NCBI GenBank assembly: GCA_019244185.1
Contig: JAFATB010000014.1
Span: 512,001 to 576,000 of the forward strand
Direction: 5' to 3'
DNA: 64,000 nucleotides
Origin: Acidobacteriota bacterium
GTDB lineage: Bacteria > Acidobacteriota > Thermoanaerobaculia > Gp7-AA8
Part shown: piece by piece, positions 216-59,328 of the stretch
Layout: each line of letters starts with the position of its first letter
How positions within the stretch are numbered: position 1 is the first letter of the stretch
Notes under the pieces: model-generated
Seen by the model: only the letters and a program-made list of their open reading frames with translations
Databases searched by the model: none
Told to the model about the DNA's origin: nothing
Position numbers and translations under genes: made by a program

Positions 216-706
216 ACGAGCTCGTCGCCTACTTCGATCGCATCCGCGCGCGCACGATGCGCCTCGTCGCCGTCGTGCCGCCGGATCGCATCGACTGGAC
301 GTACAAGCCGGGCAAGTTCACATTCGGCGACGTCATGCGGCACCTCGCGGCGATCGAGCGCTGGATGTACGCGGAGAATGCGCAATTCCGGCCGAGCCGC
401 TACGAGAGCCACGGACGCGAGCTCGCCGACGGCTACGACGCCGTCGTCGCGTACATGCAGCGGATGCACGCGGAGTCGATGGAGATCTTCGCCGCGCTCA
501 CCGACGAAGAGCTCGAGCGCCGGACGATGACTCCGGGCGGCGCCGAGCTCTCCGTGCGCAAGTGGCTGCGCGCGATGATCGAGCACGAGGTGCATCACCG
601 CGGGCAGCTCTACCTCTACTGCTCGCTGCTGGACATCCCGACGCCGCCGCTCTACGGCCTCACCTCGGAAGAAGTCGCGGCGCAGTCGGCGTCGGCGAAA
701 CGTTAG
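212..706 (+). CDS. DinB family protein
   Basis: 164 aa with the His pattern TFGDVMRHLA...EHEVHHRGQL typical of DinB/YfiT four-helix bundles. Confidence 0.85.
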   Translation: MNELVAYFDRIRARTMRLVAVVPPDRIDWTYKPGKFTFGDVMRHLAAIERWMYAENAQFRPSRYESHGRELADGYDAVVAYMQRMHAESMEIFAALTDEELERRTMTPGGAELSVRKWLRAMIEHEVHHRGQLYLYCSLLDIPTPPLYGLTSEEVAAQSASAKR

Positions 707-1347
707 CGCAGGTACAGCTTCAGCACGAACGCCGCGCCGATCGCGCCGCCGTTCGTGGTCGGACCGCCGGCCCACCAGACGTTCACGTCGTACGTGCCCG
801 GCGGGACATCGCCCGGCCCGGTGCCGACGCGCTGGAAGAAGTTGGCGCCGATCTCGTCGACGTCCTTCTCCGCCTCGATCGCCACCGCGGGCGCGGGACG
901 GCCGAACGGCGTCTCGTAATGCCCGAACATGTGCCGGTGCGCGGCCGTGCCGGCCGCGGTGAGCGTCACCTGAAACATGGTGATGCTCGAGACGCCGTAC
1001 GTCTGGCGGCTGCCGACGAGCGCGCTGAAGTGCGCGTCGAGACACGTGCCGGCGCCGAGCTTCACGCGCGTGGTGAGGATCGGCGTCTTGTCGAACAGAC
1101 CGCCTTCACCGCCGCCCGCCGGCGCGTTCCAGTTCGCGGCCGTGGTCTTGATTCCTTCGAAGCCGACGTCCTGCACGTACGTGATGGGCGCGCGGCACTC
1201 GCTGGCGGCGGGATGCGCGAATGACTTCGCGCCGGGGATCTGCCGCGGCGCCTGCGCGGGTTTGGACAACATGCCTCCGCGCTCCTGCGCGAACGCGCCG
1301 AAACCGCAGAGAACGATGACAACACTGAATGCGATCCTGATCTTCAT
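703..1347 (-). CDS. Hypothetical secreted protein
   Basis: AGGAGG SD 8 nt before ATG 1347. Signal peptide MKIRIAFSVVIVLCGFGAFA. Beta-rich, two Cys in the mature part, no recognised family. Confidence 0.7.
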   Translation of the reverse strand: MKIRIAFSVVIVLCGFGAFAQERGGMLSKPAQAPRQIPGAKSFAHPAASECRAPITYVQDVGFEGIKTTAANWNAPAGGGEGGLFDKTPILTTRVKLGAGTCLDAHFSALVGSRQTYGVSSITMFQVTLTAAGTAAHRHMFGHYETPFGRPAPAVAIEAEKDVDEIGANFFQRVGTGPGDVPPGTYDVNVWWAGGPTTNGGAIGAAFVLKLYLR

Positions 1348-1414
1348 GGAACGCACCTCCTTGTCCGGATAGTGCGTCCCGCGGCGGAACCGTTTCAGCG
1401 TGCGTTCTAGCGTT

Positions 1415-3631
1415 TCAGTGCACGGCGCGGCGCTTCGGCGGCACGCGCGTGAGCGTCACGTGCGTGGTCTGTCCGCTGTTGCGCGGAATCGTCAGCACCG
1501 TGCCGTGCGCGGTGCGCGACGAACGCACGTCGCTCGTGTTGAACGCGCCCGGAAGCGTGAGCTGGAACGAGCCGCTGGCATTCGCGCTCGGATCGGCGGC
1601 GTAGAGTTGCATCGTGTTGAAGTCGCCGGTCATGTAGACGACGGCCGCCGCGCTCGACGAAATGCCTTCGACGCTGCCCGCGCGCCAGAAGGCGATGCCG
1701 AGCGCATTCGTGCGCGTGTCGCGCACCGCGCTGACCGTGTCGTCGTTCGCGACGATCGCAAGCGGACGCGAGGCCGCCCACGCGCGCATCTGCGACGACG
1801 TCACGTTCGGCACGATCGCGTACTCGGCGGTCGCATTCACGGGACTCGTGCCGTGATCGAAGCGCAGCGTGACGAACGACTTCGTGTGCGGCGTCGTATC
1901 GCTCGAGCCGCCGAGGGCTGCCCAGGTGCCGGTGCGCGTCTCGCGCGAGGTCTGCACCGCGTCGGCGCCGCCGGGGAACCAGTAGCCGACGTTTTCGAGC
2001 TGCGCCCAGTCGGTGCCGCGCGCGAGCTGCGACGTTTCATTTACGAGCGGCCACTGATTGACGATCGTTTCGACGCGATTGCCGCTCAGCGCGGTGATGT
2101 CGTTCGCGAGGAAGACGATCGCGTCGTCGAAGAAGAACCACGACTTCTTCGCGGTCATCGACGATCCGAGCGGCGCGAGCTCCATCGCGGAGACGCCGTT
2201 CTGCGCGTCGCCGGTGCCGCCCGCATACGAGCGCGTGCCGAGGCCGTAGAGATCGTTCGCGGTGTCGGCTTTCTGTTCGACCGTGATGCCGGGGAGGCGC
2301 GTCCAGTCGAGCGCCGGCCAGACGTCCTGGTTGAAGTATTCATCGCCGCGGATGACGAGATAAAGACGTCCGTCCGACTGCCGCGCGCCGTGGAGATTCT
2401 CTTCGTTCGTTTTCTCGCCGGACTTCGTGCGCGTGGAGAACATCTTGATCGACGCGAACCAGTTGGGCCGGCGGTGCACGGTGTAATCGGACGTGAAGTA
2501 GTGGCGATGGCCGGACGGCCACGCCGCGGCGAAGCGCGCGCTCTCGATCTGCGCGGCGAGGCCCGCGAGCTCGGTCGGCATCGTGCCGTGCCACGTCTCG
2601 AGCGCTTTCGCGGCCGAGGCGCGGAGCTCGTTCGCGCGCGGGGACGCGAACTGCGAGGCCTGCAGCAGCGCGGCCACGCCGTTGTAGCCGCTCGTCGTCG
2701 GACGCGCGACTTCGCGGCTGATGACGGAGACGTCGAAGTAGTTGCCGTACAGCGACCACGCGATGCCGTCCTGTACGTAATCCGCGAACGCGGAGAGCGC
2801 GTCCGACGTCAGCTCGTACGGCGTATTGCGCGTGAGCAGCGCGTAGCGCGCGAAGTCGTTCGCGAACGAGCCGCCGTAGCCGCCGGTGTAGAGCTGCGCG
2901 CCGTGCTGGTGGAACGAGCGGTCGCTCTGGATGCCGTCGCCGGTGGTCGTGCGCGTGACGCCGCTCATCGCGTCGCGCACCGCCGCGAGCATCGTCGCGT
3001 CGTTCTTCAGGATGCCGAGCGAGAGATGCGTGTAGCAGGACCAGACGAGGTTCTCGCCGGTCGGTGTCGGACCGATGATGCCGCGCGACGCCGGCGAGCT
3101 GCCGATGCGCACGTACATCGCGGTCGTGAGATCGCTCAGCGTCTGCGGATCGATCTCGTCGCGCATGAGCACGAGCGTCGGTCCGAGGTCGAGCGGAATG
3201 CCCATCGTCCAGAACCACCAGTTGCCGGTGGGGATGATGGTCGCGCCGTAGAACTTCTTCTCGTACGCGAGCGCCGCGTCGATCTGCGTGCGCAGCCGCG
3301 CGTCGCGATAGAACGCCTGCCCCGGCGTCTGGTACGCCTTGGCCATCACCAGCGCGCGCTGCGAGTGACTCCACGGGCTCCAGCTGCCGTCGGGCGTTTC
3401 GCTGTAATTGACGTCGGACCAGCTGCCGTCGTCGCGCAGGAATCCCGCGGCGGTGATGCCGCGCGTTTCCGCCTCGAGGTTCTGCAGCGCCTCGGTCATG
3501 CGCGGCGTCGTGCGATCGGCGCCGGCGGCGGTGTAGAACGCGACGAACTGCTGGCGAAGCACGTCGGACGCCGACGCGGAAAGCGACGCGAAGGAGAGCA
3601 AAAGCAGCGCGAGGGAAAGGGTCCGTTTCAT
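1415..3631 (-). CDS. Polysaccharide lyase family 8 (chondroitin AC/hyaluronate/xanthan lyase-like), secreted
   Basis: Signal peptide. Motifs NWW, TGENLVW, DGIQSDRSFHQHGAQLYTGGYG, SREVAR, DWTRLPGIT, AKKSWFFFDD match PL8. Ends in PPKRRAVH. Confidence 0.9.
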   Translation of the reverse strand: MKRTLSLALLLLSFASLSASASDVLRQQFVAFYTAAGADRTTPRMTEALQNLEAETRGITAAGFLRDDGSWSDVNYSETPDGSWSPWSHSQRALVMAKAYQTPGQAFYRDARLRTQIDAALAYEKKFYGATIIPTGNWWFWTMGIPLDLGPTLVLMRDEIDPQTLSDLTTAMYVRIGSSPASRGIIGPTPTGENLVWSCYTHLSLGILKNDATMLAAVRDAMSGVTRTTTGDGIQSDRSFHQHGAQLYTGGYGGSFANDFARYALLTRNTPYELTSDALSAFADYVQDGIAWSLYGNYFDVSVISREVARPTTSGYNGVAALLQASQFASPRANELRASAAKALETWHGTMPTELAGLAAQIESARFAAAWPSGHRHYFTSDYTVHRRPNWFASIKMFSTRTKSGEKTNEENLHGARQSDGRLYLVIRGDEYFNQDVWPALDWTRLPGITVEQKADTANDLYGLGTRSYAGGTGDAQNGVSAMELAPLGSSMTAKKSWFFFDDAIVFLANDITALSGNRVETIVNQWPLVNETSQLARGTDWAQLENVGYWFPGGADAVQTSRETRTGTWAALGGSSDTTPHTKSFVTLRFDHGTSPVNATAEYAIVPNVTSSQMRAWAASRPLAIVANDDTVSAVRDTRTNALGIAFWRAGSVEGISSSAAAVVYMTGDFNTMQLYAADPSANASGSFQLTLPGAFNTSDVRSSRTAHGTVLTIPRNSGQTTHVTLTRVPPKRRAVH

Positions 3632-34599: not shown

Positions 34600-34748
34600 G
34601 AGGGTGACGTTCTCCGGATGTGATCCGTATACGTTCGTTGACAACGATGTGGAGCAGCAGCGCGCGATTCGCGTAGAATGCGGCGGCAGCATATCGTTGG
34701 ATGCAGTGCAGACCAATATCACGTGGTGTTAAAGGGGAGAATATGTTC

Positions 34749-35753
34749 ATGAAGAAACTCGGTGTCGCGGCGGCCATGATGCTCTGCGCGTTCGGCGCAT
34801 CCGCGAGTAACTTCCGCGGTGCGGACCAGGTGTATTTGCCGGTCGCCGGTCACGTGGGTGGTTCGAGCGGTACGTTCATCTCGGACGTGTATCTGTCGAA
34901 CCTCAGCCAGACCGAAGACGTCGACGTGTCGGTGATCTATCAGCCGATCGGCGAAGGTGGCGGCTCGGGAACGGAGTTCAAGAACGTCATCACGCTCACG
35001 GCCGGTGAGCGTCGCGAGATCACGGACTTTTTCCCGACGGTTCTCGGCCAGAACGGCTACGGACAGCTGATCTTCAACGGCTGCCTCAAGGGCGCGAACT
35101 GCGGCCCCGAGACGCAGGACGACAACGGCAACAGCCCGAACTATCGCGCCATCAGCGCGGAGAGCCGCATTTATCAGATCCCGAACGGCGGCTCGGTCAA
35201 CGACGGCACCACGGGCCAGCTCTTCTCCGGCATTCCCTGGTACAACTTCGTGAGCTCGCTCCAGAGCGCGCAGGGTCTCGACAAGATCTTCATCACCGGC
35301 ATCCGCCAGACCGGTCTCGCCGGAGCCGCTGGCACGTTCCGCACGAACATCGGCCTCGTGAACGCGTCGCAGTACAACACGACCGAGATGGTCGTCACGC
35401 TCTATCAGGGTTCGACCAGCGCGACCAGCAAGAAGGGCGAGTATCACCTCGACCTCGGCCCGCTCGGCAGCGTGCAGAAGGGCTTCGGCGAGATGTTCGG
35501 CAACGACATCACCGGCACGAACTTCTTCGTCACCGTCGAGCAGCGCAACAACCGCCCGAGCCCCGATTCGCCGAGCGGCTGCACGCAGGGCTGCCCGGCC
35601 TTCCTCGCGTACGGCTCGATCCTCGACAACAAGTCGGGTGACGCGACGACGCTCGAAGCGCAGTACATGCAGGCGCTCTCGCCGGAAGCGATCACCGTCA
35701 TCTACCCGAACGGCTCGGGCAAGACGCTGATGCACCGCAGCGTGCACCACTAA
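34749..35753 (+). CDS. Secreted hypothetical beta-rich protein
   Basis: SD GGGGAG, signal peptide MKKLGVAAAMMLCAFGASA. Two similar halves (GTFISDVYLSN / GTFRTNIGLVN), Cys pairs, C-biased codons. Ends HRSVHH. Confidence 0.8.
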   Translation: MKKLGVAAAMMLCAFGASASNFRGADQVYLPVAGHVGGSSGTFISDVYLSNLSQTEDVDVSVIYQPIGEGGGSGTEFKNVITLTAGERREITDFFPTVLGQNGYGQLIFNGCLKGANCGPETQDDNGNSPNYRAISAESRIYQIPNGGSVNDGTTGQLFSGIPWYNFVSSLQSAQGLDKIFITGIRQTGLAGAAGTFRTNIGLVNASQYNTTEMVVTLYQGSTSATSKKGEYHLDLGPLGSVQKGFGEMFGNDITGTNFFVTVEQRNNRPSPDSPSGCTQGCPAFLAYGSILDNKSGDATTLEAQYMQALSPEAITVIYPNGSGKTLMHRSVHH

Positions 35754-56869: not shown

Positions 56870-59269
56870 TCAGCGCACCGCGCGGCGCCGCGTCGGCAGC
56901 ACGATCGCGGGCGTCGACGCGGGACCCACGCCGGCGTCGTTGAACGCGCGGACGCGCAGGCCGACGACGACGCCGGTGAATCCGAAGCGGATCGTGGCGG
57001 CGTGCGTGTTCGCGTCGTACCACCCTTCGACTTCGTTCCAGGTGCCGTCGTTGATGCGGTACTCGATGCGATAGCCGTTCACGGGCTGCGACGGTGCGGT
57101 CCAGTCGACGGTGATCAGGCCGTCGTGCGGCGTCGCCGAAACGCGCGGCACGACGGGCAGCTCGGGCAGCGGAATCGAGTCGGCGATCTGCATCACGATG
57201 CGCCGCGAGCCGTGATGCGGCGCATCGGGCCGCGGTGCGATCGTGATGAGCGCAGCGTTGCCGTCCGGCAGCGCGGTCCATTGCGCGGGAGTATCGGCCG
57301 CGTACGTCGTGCGCAGGGTGACGGTGCCGTCGTGCGCGAGCAGCACGGCCTTTCCGTGATGCGTGATCCCGACGCCGCCGCTCACGGCCCGCACGATCGC
57401 CGCGTTCGTGTAGCGCGGTTGGTCCTGAAGAACAGAGACGGGAGCCCCGACCTTTGTCCCGTCGGCTCCGATGCGTTGCATCAGCTCCTCGGTACCCCTC
57501 TGCCAAACGGCGACGAAGGACTCTCCGTCCCACGCCACGCCGCCCGCCAAATCGATCTCGTCATCGAGAAGGATGGCCGTTCCATCGATGGGCTGGAGAG
57601 CTGGCGTGAGGCGGACCGCCTCGAGGCGAGAAGTTCCCACGTTACAAATCAGGCCGCAGTGCTCGTACGTTTTGCTCCAGACCGCGAGCAGCTCTGTGCC
57701 GTTGAAGGCAATCGTCGCGTCAAAGGGAACGATGTCGTCGACGGTATGCTGGAGAAGGACCGGCGGGAGAAGCGTACCGGAGGGTGTGATCTCGGCGCCG
57801 AGGAGATTGAGCGTGAGGTCGAACCCGACACCATCGGGCGCATCGTCATCCGCCCATCCGACCACGACGTAGCCGCGGCCGTTGGCGGCGAGATCCATCG
57901 GCTCAAATGGCAAGGGACCGGTGGTCCCGGTGAGACGTCCCCGCGAGTCGAAGACGCGGACGACATATTCAAATGACGCATTGCGTACCACGAGCGCGAA
58001 GCCGCTAACGTCGCTCGCAGCGATGAGCGGCGTCTCTCCGTTAGCGACGACGCCCTCAGTCCAGCTTCCGTCACGCTGCCGCAGGCCGATATGCAGTTTG
58101 TTCTCGTCATCCGGCGACTCGTTCCATGCGACGAACGTCGTGTCCGCCGAGGACGCCGCGACGCTGTTCTGTTGATCGGTCGCCGCGATCGCCGCCGGCG
58201 TGCCGTTGCCGGCAGCGGACGCATTGCGCACGACGATGGGGTTGACCGACTCGTACGTTCTCCAGGCGATCGTGACCGCGCCGTTCACCGCGGCGAGACT
58301 GGTCATGGTGTCGAAGTTCACTGCCGCGGTGGGCTCGTTCGCGACGACACGGCCGGCCGTTGCATCGACGCGAACGATCCGCACCTCGTATGATTCCGCG
58401 CCCACGGCGACATACGCCACCGTGTACGACGAGCCGTTCCACACGACGGATGGACTATTGAACGGCACGGTATAAGCCGTCGTGGGCTCCGCGAGCGAGA
58501 ATCTCGGCTCGACCACACCGTCCCGGCGCACGCGCGCCGCGCTCACCTCGCCCAGCTTGTTCGTCCAGACGGCGAGCGCGTCGGATGGGCCGCTCGCGAT
58601 GGCGACACCCGTCGGCTCGAACCCGGACAAGACGCCAGTCTGCGACTCCAGCAGTCCGTTCGCCGTGTACTGAAGCACGCGCACGACGCCGTCGTGGATG
58701 CCGACTCCGGCAAAGCGGCTGCCGTTGGCGGTGAGTTGCTGCGGCCCGTGCGTGGCGGTGCCGTACGGGTCGTTCGTCGCCTGGCCGCTCAGCGTCAGAA
58801 GTTGCGATCGCCATTCGAAGCCGTAGAGGTACGTGAGCAGGAGGTTCTGGCCATTGCTCGCCAGCGCCGGCGCGGAGCCCTGCGTCAGCACGAACGCGGG
58901 GCCGAGCGGCTCGCCGGTCGTGCCGTCGAGGAGGCGGCCATAGATCGTGTACGGATCATTGGTCGCGGTTGCCGCGAGCAGGAACTGCGTGCCGGTCCAC
59001 ACGATCGCCGCCTGATTCGTGGCCGGAAACACCAGCCGTCCGACGCGCTTCTCGCCGTGAGCCAGACGCGTGAAGCGCAATCCGTCCAGCGTGTTCCAGA
59101 GGAGGAAGACGTCGCGGCCGTTGGCGACGAGCTGCGGCCGCGCGTCGTACGCGCCGTAGCGTGTATTCGTGAGGGGAAAGGGGGCGCCGAGGTGCGTGGG
59201 TTGGGCCGTGAGCGTCGTTGCGAGAACGAGCGTGAAGAGCGCGGCGACAGCGGTACGCAGATGCGGCAT
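56870..59269 (-). CDS. Large secreted beta-repeat protein with C-terminal fibronectin type III domain
   Basis: Signal peptide. Repeats of (W/F)(N/D/T)Gxx(F/Y)(L/V)xxW. FN3 motif ITVDWTAP...GYRIEY...VRAFNDAGVG. Ends PTRRRAVR. Confidence 0.8.
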   Translation of the reverse strand: MPHLRTAVAALFTLVLATTLTAQPTHLGAPFPLTNTRYGAYDARPQLVANGRDVFLLWNTLDGLRFTRLAHGEKRVGRLVFPATNQAAIVWTGTQFLLAATATNDPYTIYGRLLDGTTGEPLGPAFVLTQGSAPALASNGQNLLLTYLYGFEWRSQLLTLSGQATNDPYGTATHGPQQLTANGSRFAGVGIHDGVVRVLQYTANGLLESQTGVLSGFEPTGVAIASGPSDALAVWTNKLGEVSAARVRRDGVVEPRFSLAEPTTAYTVPFNSPSVVWNGSSYTVAYVAVGAESYEVRIVRVDATAGRVVANEPTAAVNFDTMTSLAAVNGAVTIAWRTYESVNPIVVRNASAAGNGTPAAIAATDQQNSVAASSADTTFVAWNESPDDENKLHIGLRQRDGSWTEGVVANGETPLIAASDVSGFALVVRNASFEYVVRVFDSRGRLTGTTGPLPFEPMDLAANGRGYVVVGWADDDAPDGVGFDLTLNLLGAEITPSGTLLPPVLLQHTVDDIVPFDATIAFNGTELLAVWSKTYEHCGLICNVGTSRLEAVRLTPALQPIDGTAILLDDEIDLAGGVAWDGESFVAVWQRGTEELMQRIGADGTKVGAPVSVLQDQPRYTNAAIVRAVSGGVGITHHGKAVLLAHDGTVTLRTTYAADTPAQWTALPDGNAALITIAPRPDAPHHGSRRIVMQIADSIPLPELPVVPRVSATPHDGLITVDWTAPSQPVNGYRIEYRINDGTWNEVEGWYDANTHAATIRFGFTGVVVGLRVRAFNDAGVGPASTPAIVLPTRRRAVR

Positions 59270-59328
59270 GACGAGCAATATATGTGGTTATGCCATAAAG
59301 CGCCAGCCCCACCTACAATACGCGCCGC

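Follow-up and report, generated by a model that had tools for sequence, protein, structure and literature searches.

A short basic C-terminal motif on exported proteins of one Thermoanaerobaculia order, a candidate cell-envelope tag

A PL8 polysaccharide lyase encoded in a 64,000-nucleotide stretch of DNA from an Acidobacteriota bacterium (G000:C4:512001-576000, in the following called the window) ends in a short run of basic residues, and an unrelated exported protein encoded in the same window ends in a very similar way. This raises the question whether such an end arose by chance in a high-GC genome, or whether it is a signal that is recognised in the cell, and for what purpose. An earlier note on this DNA had proposed a lineage-specific tag for export, cleavage or surface anchoring. 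The host genome comprises 5.30 Mb in 26 contigs with a GC content of 67%, and the whole genome was covered by a set of 3648 genes obtained with a crude codon-usage scorer, which accounts for 83% of the bases. Named homologues are assigned to Thermoanaerobaculia or Acidobacteriota. In this predicted gene set, the tail is established as a motif at the protein level that is position-specific and strictly terminal, and its carriers are exported, acidic proteins of extracellular type that are unrelated to each other.

The lyase gene is located at 1415..3631 on the minus strand and encodes a protein of 738 amino acids with a Sec-type signal peptide and the Pfam families Lyase_8_N, Lyase_8 and Lyase_8_C. 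Its C-terminus reads ...TLTRVPPKRRAVH and is followed by the stop; the tail codons (VPPKRRAVH, 1418..1444) and the TGA stop (1415..1417) together occupy 1415..1444 on the minus strand. Residues 72-762 of the hyaluronate lyase structure 8fnx_A (765 amino acids) align to residues 91-729 of the lyase, and since the homology to the solved structure stops at residue 729, the nine residues 730-738 that form the tail lie just past the fold. The second gene, at 56870..59278 on the minus strand, codes for an exported protein of 802 amino acids with an FN3-like domain at its end; this assignment is weak, as the Pfam fn3 match (E 0.0003) falls short of the cut-off. Its N-terminus is likewise of the Sec type, and its C-terminus reads ...IVLPTRRRAVR before the stop, with the tail codons (LPTRRRAVR, 56873..56899) and the TGA stop at 56870..56899 on the same strand. 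Both sequence ends and both N-termini were confirmed as they had first been described. The FN3-ended gene had been placed at 56870..59269; gene and tail were recovered, and the start at 59278 used here is a matter of start-codon choice only. These two proteins had been given as the carriers in the window, and both hold, but a third had been missed. It is encoded at 34701..35753 on the plus strand, has 350 amino acids, a signal peptide and no Pfam family, and ends ...TLMHRSVHH.

On the same strand as the lyase gene and 58 bases downstream of it, a gene at 703..1356 (minus) encodes a signal-peptide protein of 217 amino acids with an unassigned family, which ends ...FVLKLYLR. This gene may be co-transcribed with the lyase gene.

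Genome-wide, a strict carrier rule (Pro-rich linker, [KR], [RH], R, [AS], V, [RH], optional H, stop) identified 31 genes, three of which are those in the window, and in the 31 carriers the core lies 0-3 residues from the C-terminus. The pattern first proposed, [KR]RR[AS][VA][RH]x{0,3}$, was found in 12 proteins of the predicted proteome. A tighter six-residue form occurred at most four residues from the end in 11 proteins and internally in 6, within approximately 1.4 million residues; from the internal rate 0.08 terminal cases are expected, and the same form was present at the end of one of 9910 non-coding-like control open reading frames. When enrichment of 4-mers in the last ten residues was calculated without bias towards the motif, pieces of the tail ranked at the top (RAVR, 16 versus 1.96 expected; RRSV, 9 versus 0.61 expected; next VKRR and KRRA), and a looser property rule retrieved 45 of 3562 proteins versus 5.4 expected. 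The recurrence of the motif was thereby borne out. The earlier note had asked whether the motif occurs at the rate set by an Arg-, Ala- and Val-rich, high-GC composition, and it was found far above that expectation, so that chance from composition was rejected on the control frames, the 4-mers and the looser rule alike.

The DNA that encodes the tails was compared in the first 19 carriers. Here, the codons for Arg, Ser and Ala vary from gene to gene, the stop codons comprise 13 TGA, 4 TAA and 2 TAG, and the 90 bases past the stop are unrelated. This implied selection on the protein level, and an origin of the tail from a dispersed DNA repeat or a terminator was thus ruled out.

For a description of the motif, the 31 tails of the genome and those of 120 PL8 homologues were aligned on the best small-aliphatic core. 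Positions -4 and -3 are Pro-rich, position -2 is K or R, and position -1 is R, less often H, Q or K. Position 0 is R, in the PL8 set in 120 of 120 sequences. It is followed at position +1 by A or S, rarely by T or G (A, S or T in all 120 PL8 homologues), at position +2 by V, less often by A, L or I (V in 76 of the 120, with A, L, T, S, M or I in the others), at position +3 by R, less often by H or G (R in 85 of 120), and at position +4 by H, R or the end. Usually one or two residues follow the aliphatic position, with a range of 0-5. The tail has a length of 8-9 residues without a hydrophobic run, and the carriers terminate in H, R or P, while Lys is terminal in 2 of 31. The motif P-x-[KR]-R-R-A-V-[HR], as it had been proposed, turned out to be too narrow, since among the 120 PL8 homologues both the linker and the two basic residues before the core are variable and the core is R-[AS]-V-[RH]. 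The Arg at position 0 is never replaced by Lys, directly beside positions at which K and R are freely exchanged. As far as can be judged from the alignment, this argues for a tail that is recognised by its sequence rather than by bare charge.

The carriers belong to more than 15 different Pfam families, which are of extracellular type and mutually unrelated. Six of the nine S8 peptidases of the genome bear the tail. The further enzymes are an M10 metalloprotease, the PL8 lyase, a GH44 glycosidase, a GDSL lipase, a phosphoesterase, a PQQ-type glucose/sorbosone dehydrogenase (GSDH) and an S9/esterase fragment, and the non-enzyme carriers include three BNR/sortilin and two CARDB proteins in addition to PKD, HYR, Calx-beta, LVIVD and FN3-like proteins. 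Seven carriers have no Pfam family, and typical cytoplasmic proteins were not found among the carriers. Enrichment among secreted proteins, as had been predicted, was obtained with a strict signal-peptide heuristic, by which 21 of 30 carriers were positive versus 718 of 3344 other proteins (Fisher p = 2e-8); an earlier, laxer rule had given 13 of 18 carriers versus 1157 of 3444 others. The bodies of the carriers are acidic, with a median isoelectric point of 4.98 versus 5.75 for 452 other signal-peptide proteins of at least 300 amino acids (Mann-Whitney p = 3.5e-9), and an isoelectric point of at most 6 was calculated for 97% of the carriers versus 61% of these 452 proteins.

The taxonomic range of the tail was determined on orthologues of three protein families, namely PL8, the FN3-ended protein and GSDH. 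Among the PL8 matches listed, the tail is kept in 120 of 120 homologues (64-91% identity), with a varying linker. The FN3-ended protein is a member of a genus-wide family of tandem paralogues, which are 30-37% identical to it, and the tail is present at the end of 29 of 30 loci of this family, or of 28 of 28 when two loci from the unpublished genome G024, which include the sole exception, are left aside. For GSDH, the tail was identified in all 15 readable orthologues of the same taxonomic family, from 8 genera, two of them as variants; a sixteenth orthologue is unreadable owing to an in-frame stop. In a sister family of the same order, GSDH has the tail in one genome and a variant in another, and one S8 orthologue of the sister family is also tailed.

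Outside this range the proteins end differently. Of 24 genomes from the same genus, 23 have a PL8 gene, and a search of 16 genomes from other genera gave none. When the 150 best PL8 representatives (50% clustering) were inspected, five had the tail (P0122-P0125 and P0194), all of them at 46% identity or above, and two more close representatives are either fragments or contain a frame shift. Among the 143 at 45% identity or below, no clear tail was seen, with P0270 as a borderline look-alike, so that the check for PL8 homologues elsewhere came out as the earlier note had expected; many of these 143 end, by eye, in a manner resembling PEP-CTERM, the C-terminal domain (CTD) of type IX secretion (T9SS), LPXTG or dockerins. 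Similarly, the tail was found in none of 14 GSDH orthologues from other Thermoanaerobaculia families. Four of these run on into SLH domains, for two of which the SLH matches were confirmed in the same frame, two end in a DGFE..W tail, four have an Ig-like domain followed by a ..PR.V.RP end, and one has another basic, Pro-rich end. The S8 peptidases of other families, for which the loci of G030 come from an unpublished genome, have the DGFE..W tail or another conserved tail. By these comparisons of predicted proteins, the tail is established as conserved through deep divergence and confined to one order of Thermoanaerobaculia, and the lineage specificity that had been claimed for it stands.

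The ..P-R-x-V-x-R-P ends after the Ig-like domain were found at L139, L141, L144 and L145, all in family f6 (G097, G066, G050 and G082), and they have the same spacing of Arg and Val as the tail. Judged from this spacing, the f6 end may belong to the same tag, as the variant of that lineage.

With moderate confidence, the tail is regarded as a lineage-specific tag for localisation to the cell envelope, read as a linear motif. This was suggested by the orthologues elsewhere, which in the same position carry SLH domains or ends that resemble PEP-CTERM or T9SS signals; the localisation function and any binding partner are both inferred. The tag would consist of a Pro-rich linker, two variable basic residues, the invariant Arg, Ala or Ser, Val, Arg or His, often an extra His, and the stop, and it would be joined directly past the last folded domain of Sec-exported acidic proteins. 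It would most likely place or keep its carriers at the envelope, where they might be retained or anchored at the surface or the wall, or be passed on to an outer-membrane step. The partner that binds this short linear motif might be a protein dedicated to reading it or an anionic polymer of the envelope.

Several observations weigh against a role in envelope localisation. The gene calls and the signal-peptide rule are home-made, and nine of 30 carriers were negative by this rule; four of the nine appear signal-peptide-like by eye, and the remaining five may be start-codon errors or exceptions. The acidic bodies may simply mark extracellular proteins. Many distant PL8 homologues stop right past the last strand, and the analogy to SLH and sorting domains is one of position only. 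SLH matches are scarce in the tail-bearing family f1 (0-2 matches per genome, any in 5 of 18 genomes) and plentiful in several other families (10-76 matches), but this scarcity is not specific to tailed families, with matches in 0 of 10 genomes of f14 and 0 of 4 of f5. SLH as a strictly complementary system was therefore retained only in part, since several tail-less families are also without SLH.

The search for a machinery that reads or processes the tail has to be counted on the same side. Blastp clustering of the 284 genes located up to five genes away from the 31 carriers gave no recurrent partner family; two-component regulator families and local paralogues were the only ones to recur. 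Since the tail resembles a dibasic processing site, proteases specific for basic residues were examined. In the genome, no omptin, no C11 peptidase and no kexin-type S8 peptidase with a P-domain was found, the sole P-domain being located on an M36 metalloprotease; C14 caspase-like genes gave five matches. The distribution of Peptidase_C25 in the class is widespread but patchy, with 13 of 18 genomes in f1, 0 of 1 in f3 and presence in many tail-less families. It is missing from the tail-bearing genomes G053, G061, G077 and G026 and common where the sampled orthologues are tail-less, and C25 as an obligate reader was rejected. Of the export, cleavage or anchoring tag of the earlier note, the lineage-specific motif on signal-peptide proteins was thus retained, whereas a reader or processing enzyme was not found.

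The host genome itself encodes two very large Peptidase_C25 proteins of the gingipain/PorU family, 10 kb apart (G000:C26:20192-21202, in a frame of 1073 amino acids, and C26:30397-31383, in a frame of 2011 amino acids), in a genome without a T9SS CTD match.

A more specific form of the localisation reading can be offered only tentatively and is itself rather doubtful. Here, the tail would be a bacterial counterpart of KDEL or PTS1, a helix-free signal some five residues long (R-[AS]-V-R-H) that is read by a receptor, and a machine not yet described would carry folded enzymes, after their export by Sec, from the periplasm to the cell surface or through the outer membrane. If this were true, the short tails of the sister families would be lineage-specific dialects of the same system.

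An unlikely alternative is that the tail is a site of processing or transpeptidation, at which a basic-residue-specific protease or ligase of the envelope would cleave the bond that joins the invariant Arg to Ala or Ser. A leaving group of three to four residues would be released, and the protein would be trimmed or its new C-terminus linked to an envelope molecule; where the product is anchored, this explanation overlaps with envelope localisation. Processing sites of the kexin/furin type are dibasic, and the arrangement [KR]-[RH]-R followed by [AS]-V resembles them. The 0-5, mostly one or two, residues past Val fit an endoproteolytic site better than recognition of a free carboxylate, and the genome encodes many S8 peptidases in addition to the two large C25 peptidases. 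Against this, the P-domain is on the M36 protein and on none of the S8 peptidases, omptin and C11 were not found in the genome, and C25 is absent from the four tailed genomes named above and present in many families with tail-less sampled orthologues. We know of no bacterial precedent for a leaving group of three to four residues, which also counts against cleavage.

Still less probable is a protective cap without any role in localisation, in which the basic, non-hydrophobic end shields the protein in transit from tail-specific or carboxy-terminal proteases. Tail-specific proteases prefer apolar C-termini, and the tail is strictly terminal and located on exported proteins, as a cap would be. 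For a cap, however, an invariant Arg with a small residue, Val and Arg behind it would be unnecessary, one would not expect it in the place of the SLH or sorting domains of orthologues, and about 450 other signal-peptide proteins of at least 300 amino acids manage without the tail. An artefact or leftover, that is a product of chance at high GC, a DNA repeat that extends into the ends of genes or a PEP/IPTL remnant that has lost its helix, is hardly credible: while the genome has 67% GC, some open reading frames end in a repeat-derived ...RTQNAE, and Pro-Pro with an Arg cluster loosely recalls both ends of PEP-CTERM, these points are opposed by the 11 terminal cases versus 0.08 expected and the single case in 9910 control frames, by the unrelated codons and downstream DNA of the carriers, by the retention of the tail at 30-37% identity, and by the different appearance of the true IPTL-CTERM ends of the same genome.

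Other C-terminal ends are also shared among proteins of this genome. Six exported proteins have a common end of approximately 20 residues, ...[IV]DVTGY[FY][KQ]; five are clustered in G000:C7:246882-258323, a cluster adjoined by the basic-tail gene C7:246336-246821, and one is at C10:154856-156346. Giant proteins of 4617, 1487 and 2097 amino acids end ...PTY[VI]PAQ (G000:C2:135531-149384, C2:150367-154830 and C4:585462-591755), and basic-tail genes are located directly beside two of them, at C2:134298-135428 and at C4:591754-593127, the latter overlapping the end of the giant gene by 2 bases. Five paralogous exported proteins end ...SVTNN[DE]TQ.ITTITP (for example G000:C6:457141-460088 and C2:344858-347260), with a similar end in G027 (L069). 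Five unrelated open reading frames end ...RRTQNAE, among them C26:429314-432616 and C2:206981-208522, and one open reading frame starts with a similar string; from its sequence, this end appears to be a dispersed DNA repeat that continues into the ends of genes.

In soil, Acidobacteriota rank with the most abundant bacteria, and they are major degraders of polymers. To our knowledge, the way in which degradative enzymes are delivered to the surface in diderms outside the model phyla is largely obscure. As a conserved mark of eight residues on about 30 secreted enzymes in each genome, the tail would represent a new class of signal. The surface and secreted proteome of uncultured members could then be predicted in a simple way, and the tail, if transferable, would also provide a very small tag for surface display.

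How the tail relates to known systems can be considered in several steps. All catalogued C-terminal sorting signals known to us depend either on a helix in the membrane or on a folded domain. The tail has neither, which agrees with the statement of the earlier note that it matches no described sorting signal, and no account of such a tail was found in full-text literature searches, with subscription journals outside their coverage. For tripartite signals, the available part of the account of Haft (10.1101/2023.06.07.544157) lists a location at the extreme C-terminus, many copies per genome, a membrane-spanning hydrophobic segment, carriers that have a signal peptide and are otherwise unrelated, and a co-occurring cognate enzyme. 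Set against this part of the account, the tail resembles LPXTG/sortase, PEP-CTERM/exosortase, IPTL-CTERM, GlyGly-CTERM/rhombosortase and MYXO-CTERM/myxosortase in being terminal, present in many copies and carried by unrelated signal-peptide proteins, and in having a short signature motif, an Arg cluster and a restricted lineage. Unlike these signals, it has no hydrophobic membrane-spanning segment, the whole tag comprises about eight residues, and its basic cluster stands before the conserved core instead of closing the signal. The remaining features of the list were all present. Since the tail has no membrane helix, and no cognate enzyme was identified in the searches described above, it is not placed in the tripartite class as defined there.

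A classical tripartite system is present in the same genome. Eight IPTL-CTERM matches (PF18203) were found, all in other proteins, and approximately nine ends consisting of a helix plus basic residues were recognised by eye; none of the 31 tail carriers has a helix-type IPTL end. An exosortase-family protein (PF09721) of 174 amino acids is encoded at G000:C10:203319-203843 (L087:1462-1986) and is followed by a membrane protein of 194 amino acids. By these predicted genes, an IPTL-CTERM system with an exosortase-family gene coexists with the basic tail as a separate set. PEP-CTERM (PF07589) gave no match in the genome, with a profile that was silent on the control too and is thus uninformative. 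The T9SS CTD (PF18962) gave no match in the genome either. Like this CTD, the tail is a C-terminal addition to secreted hydrolases, and distant PL8 homologues have, by eye, T9SS-like ends at the same position; unlike the CTD, which is a folded beta-sandwich of about 75 residues, it measures 8-9 residues. Wall attachment of the Braun-lipoprotein type uses a C-terminal lysine for linkage to peptidoglycan, and this type was rejected, with Lys at the end of only two of the 31 carriers.

Among eukaryotic signals, KDEL, PTS1 of the SKL type and CAAX are C-terminal motifs of three to four residues that are read by a dedicated receptor or protease. The tail may work in a similar way, although these motifs belong to another kingdom and to other compartments, share no homology with it, and are set at a constant distance from the carboxylate, while in the tail the number of residues behind Val ranges from 0 to 5. 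A comparison in position is provided by the SLH domains of the GSDH orthologues of other families, which stand at the same place after the catalytic domain. An SLH domain folds into a module of some 44 residues, which often occurs in several copies and binds a particular polymer of the wall, and the tail is a linear peptide; its occurrence at the position taken by SLH in these orthologues suggests a shared role in envelope retention.

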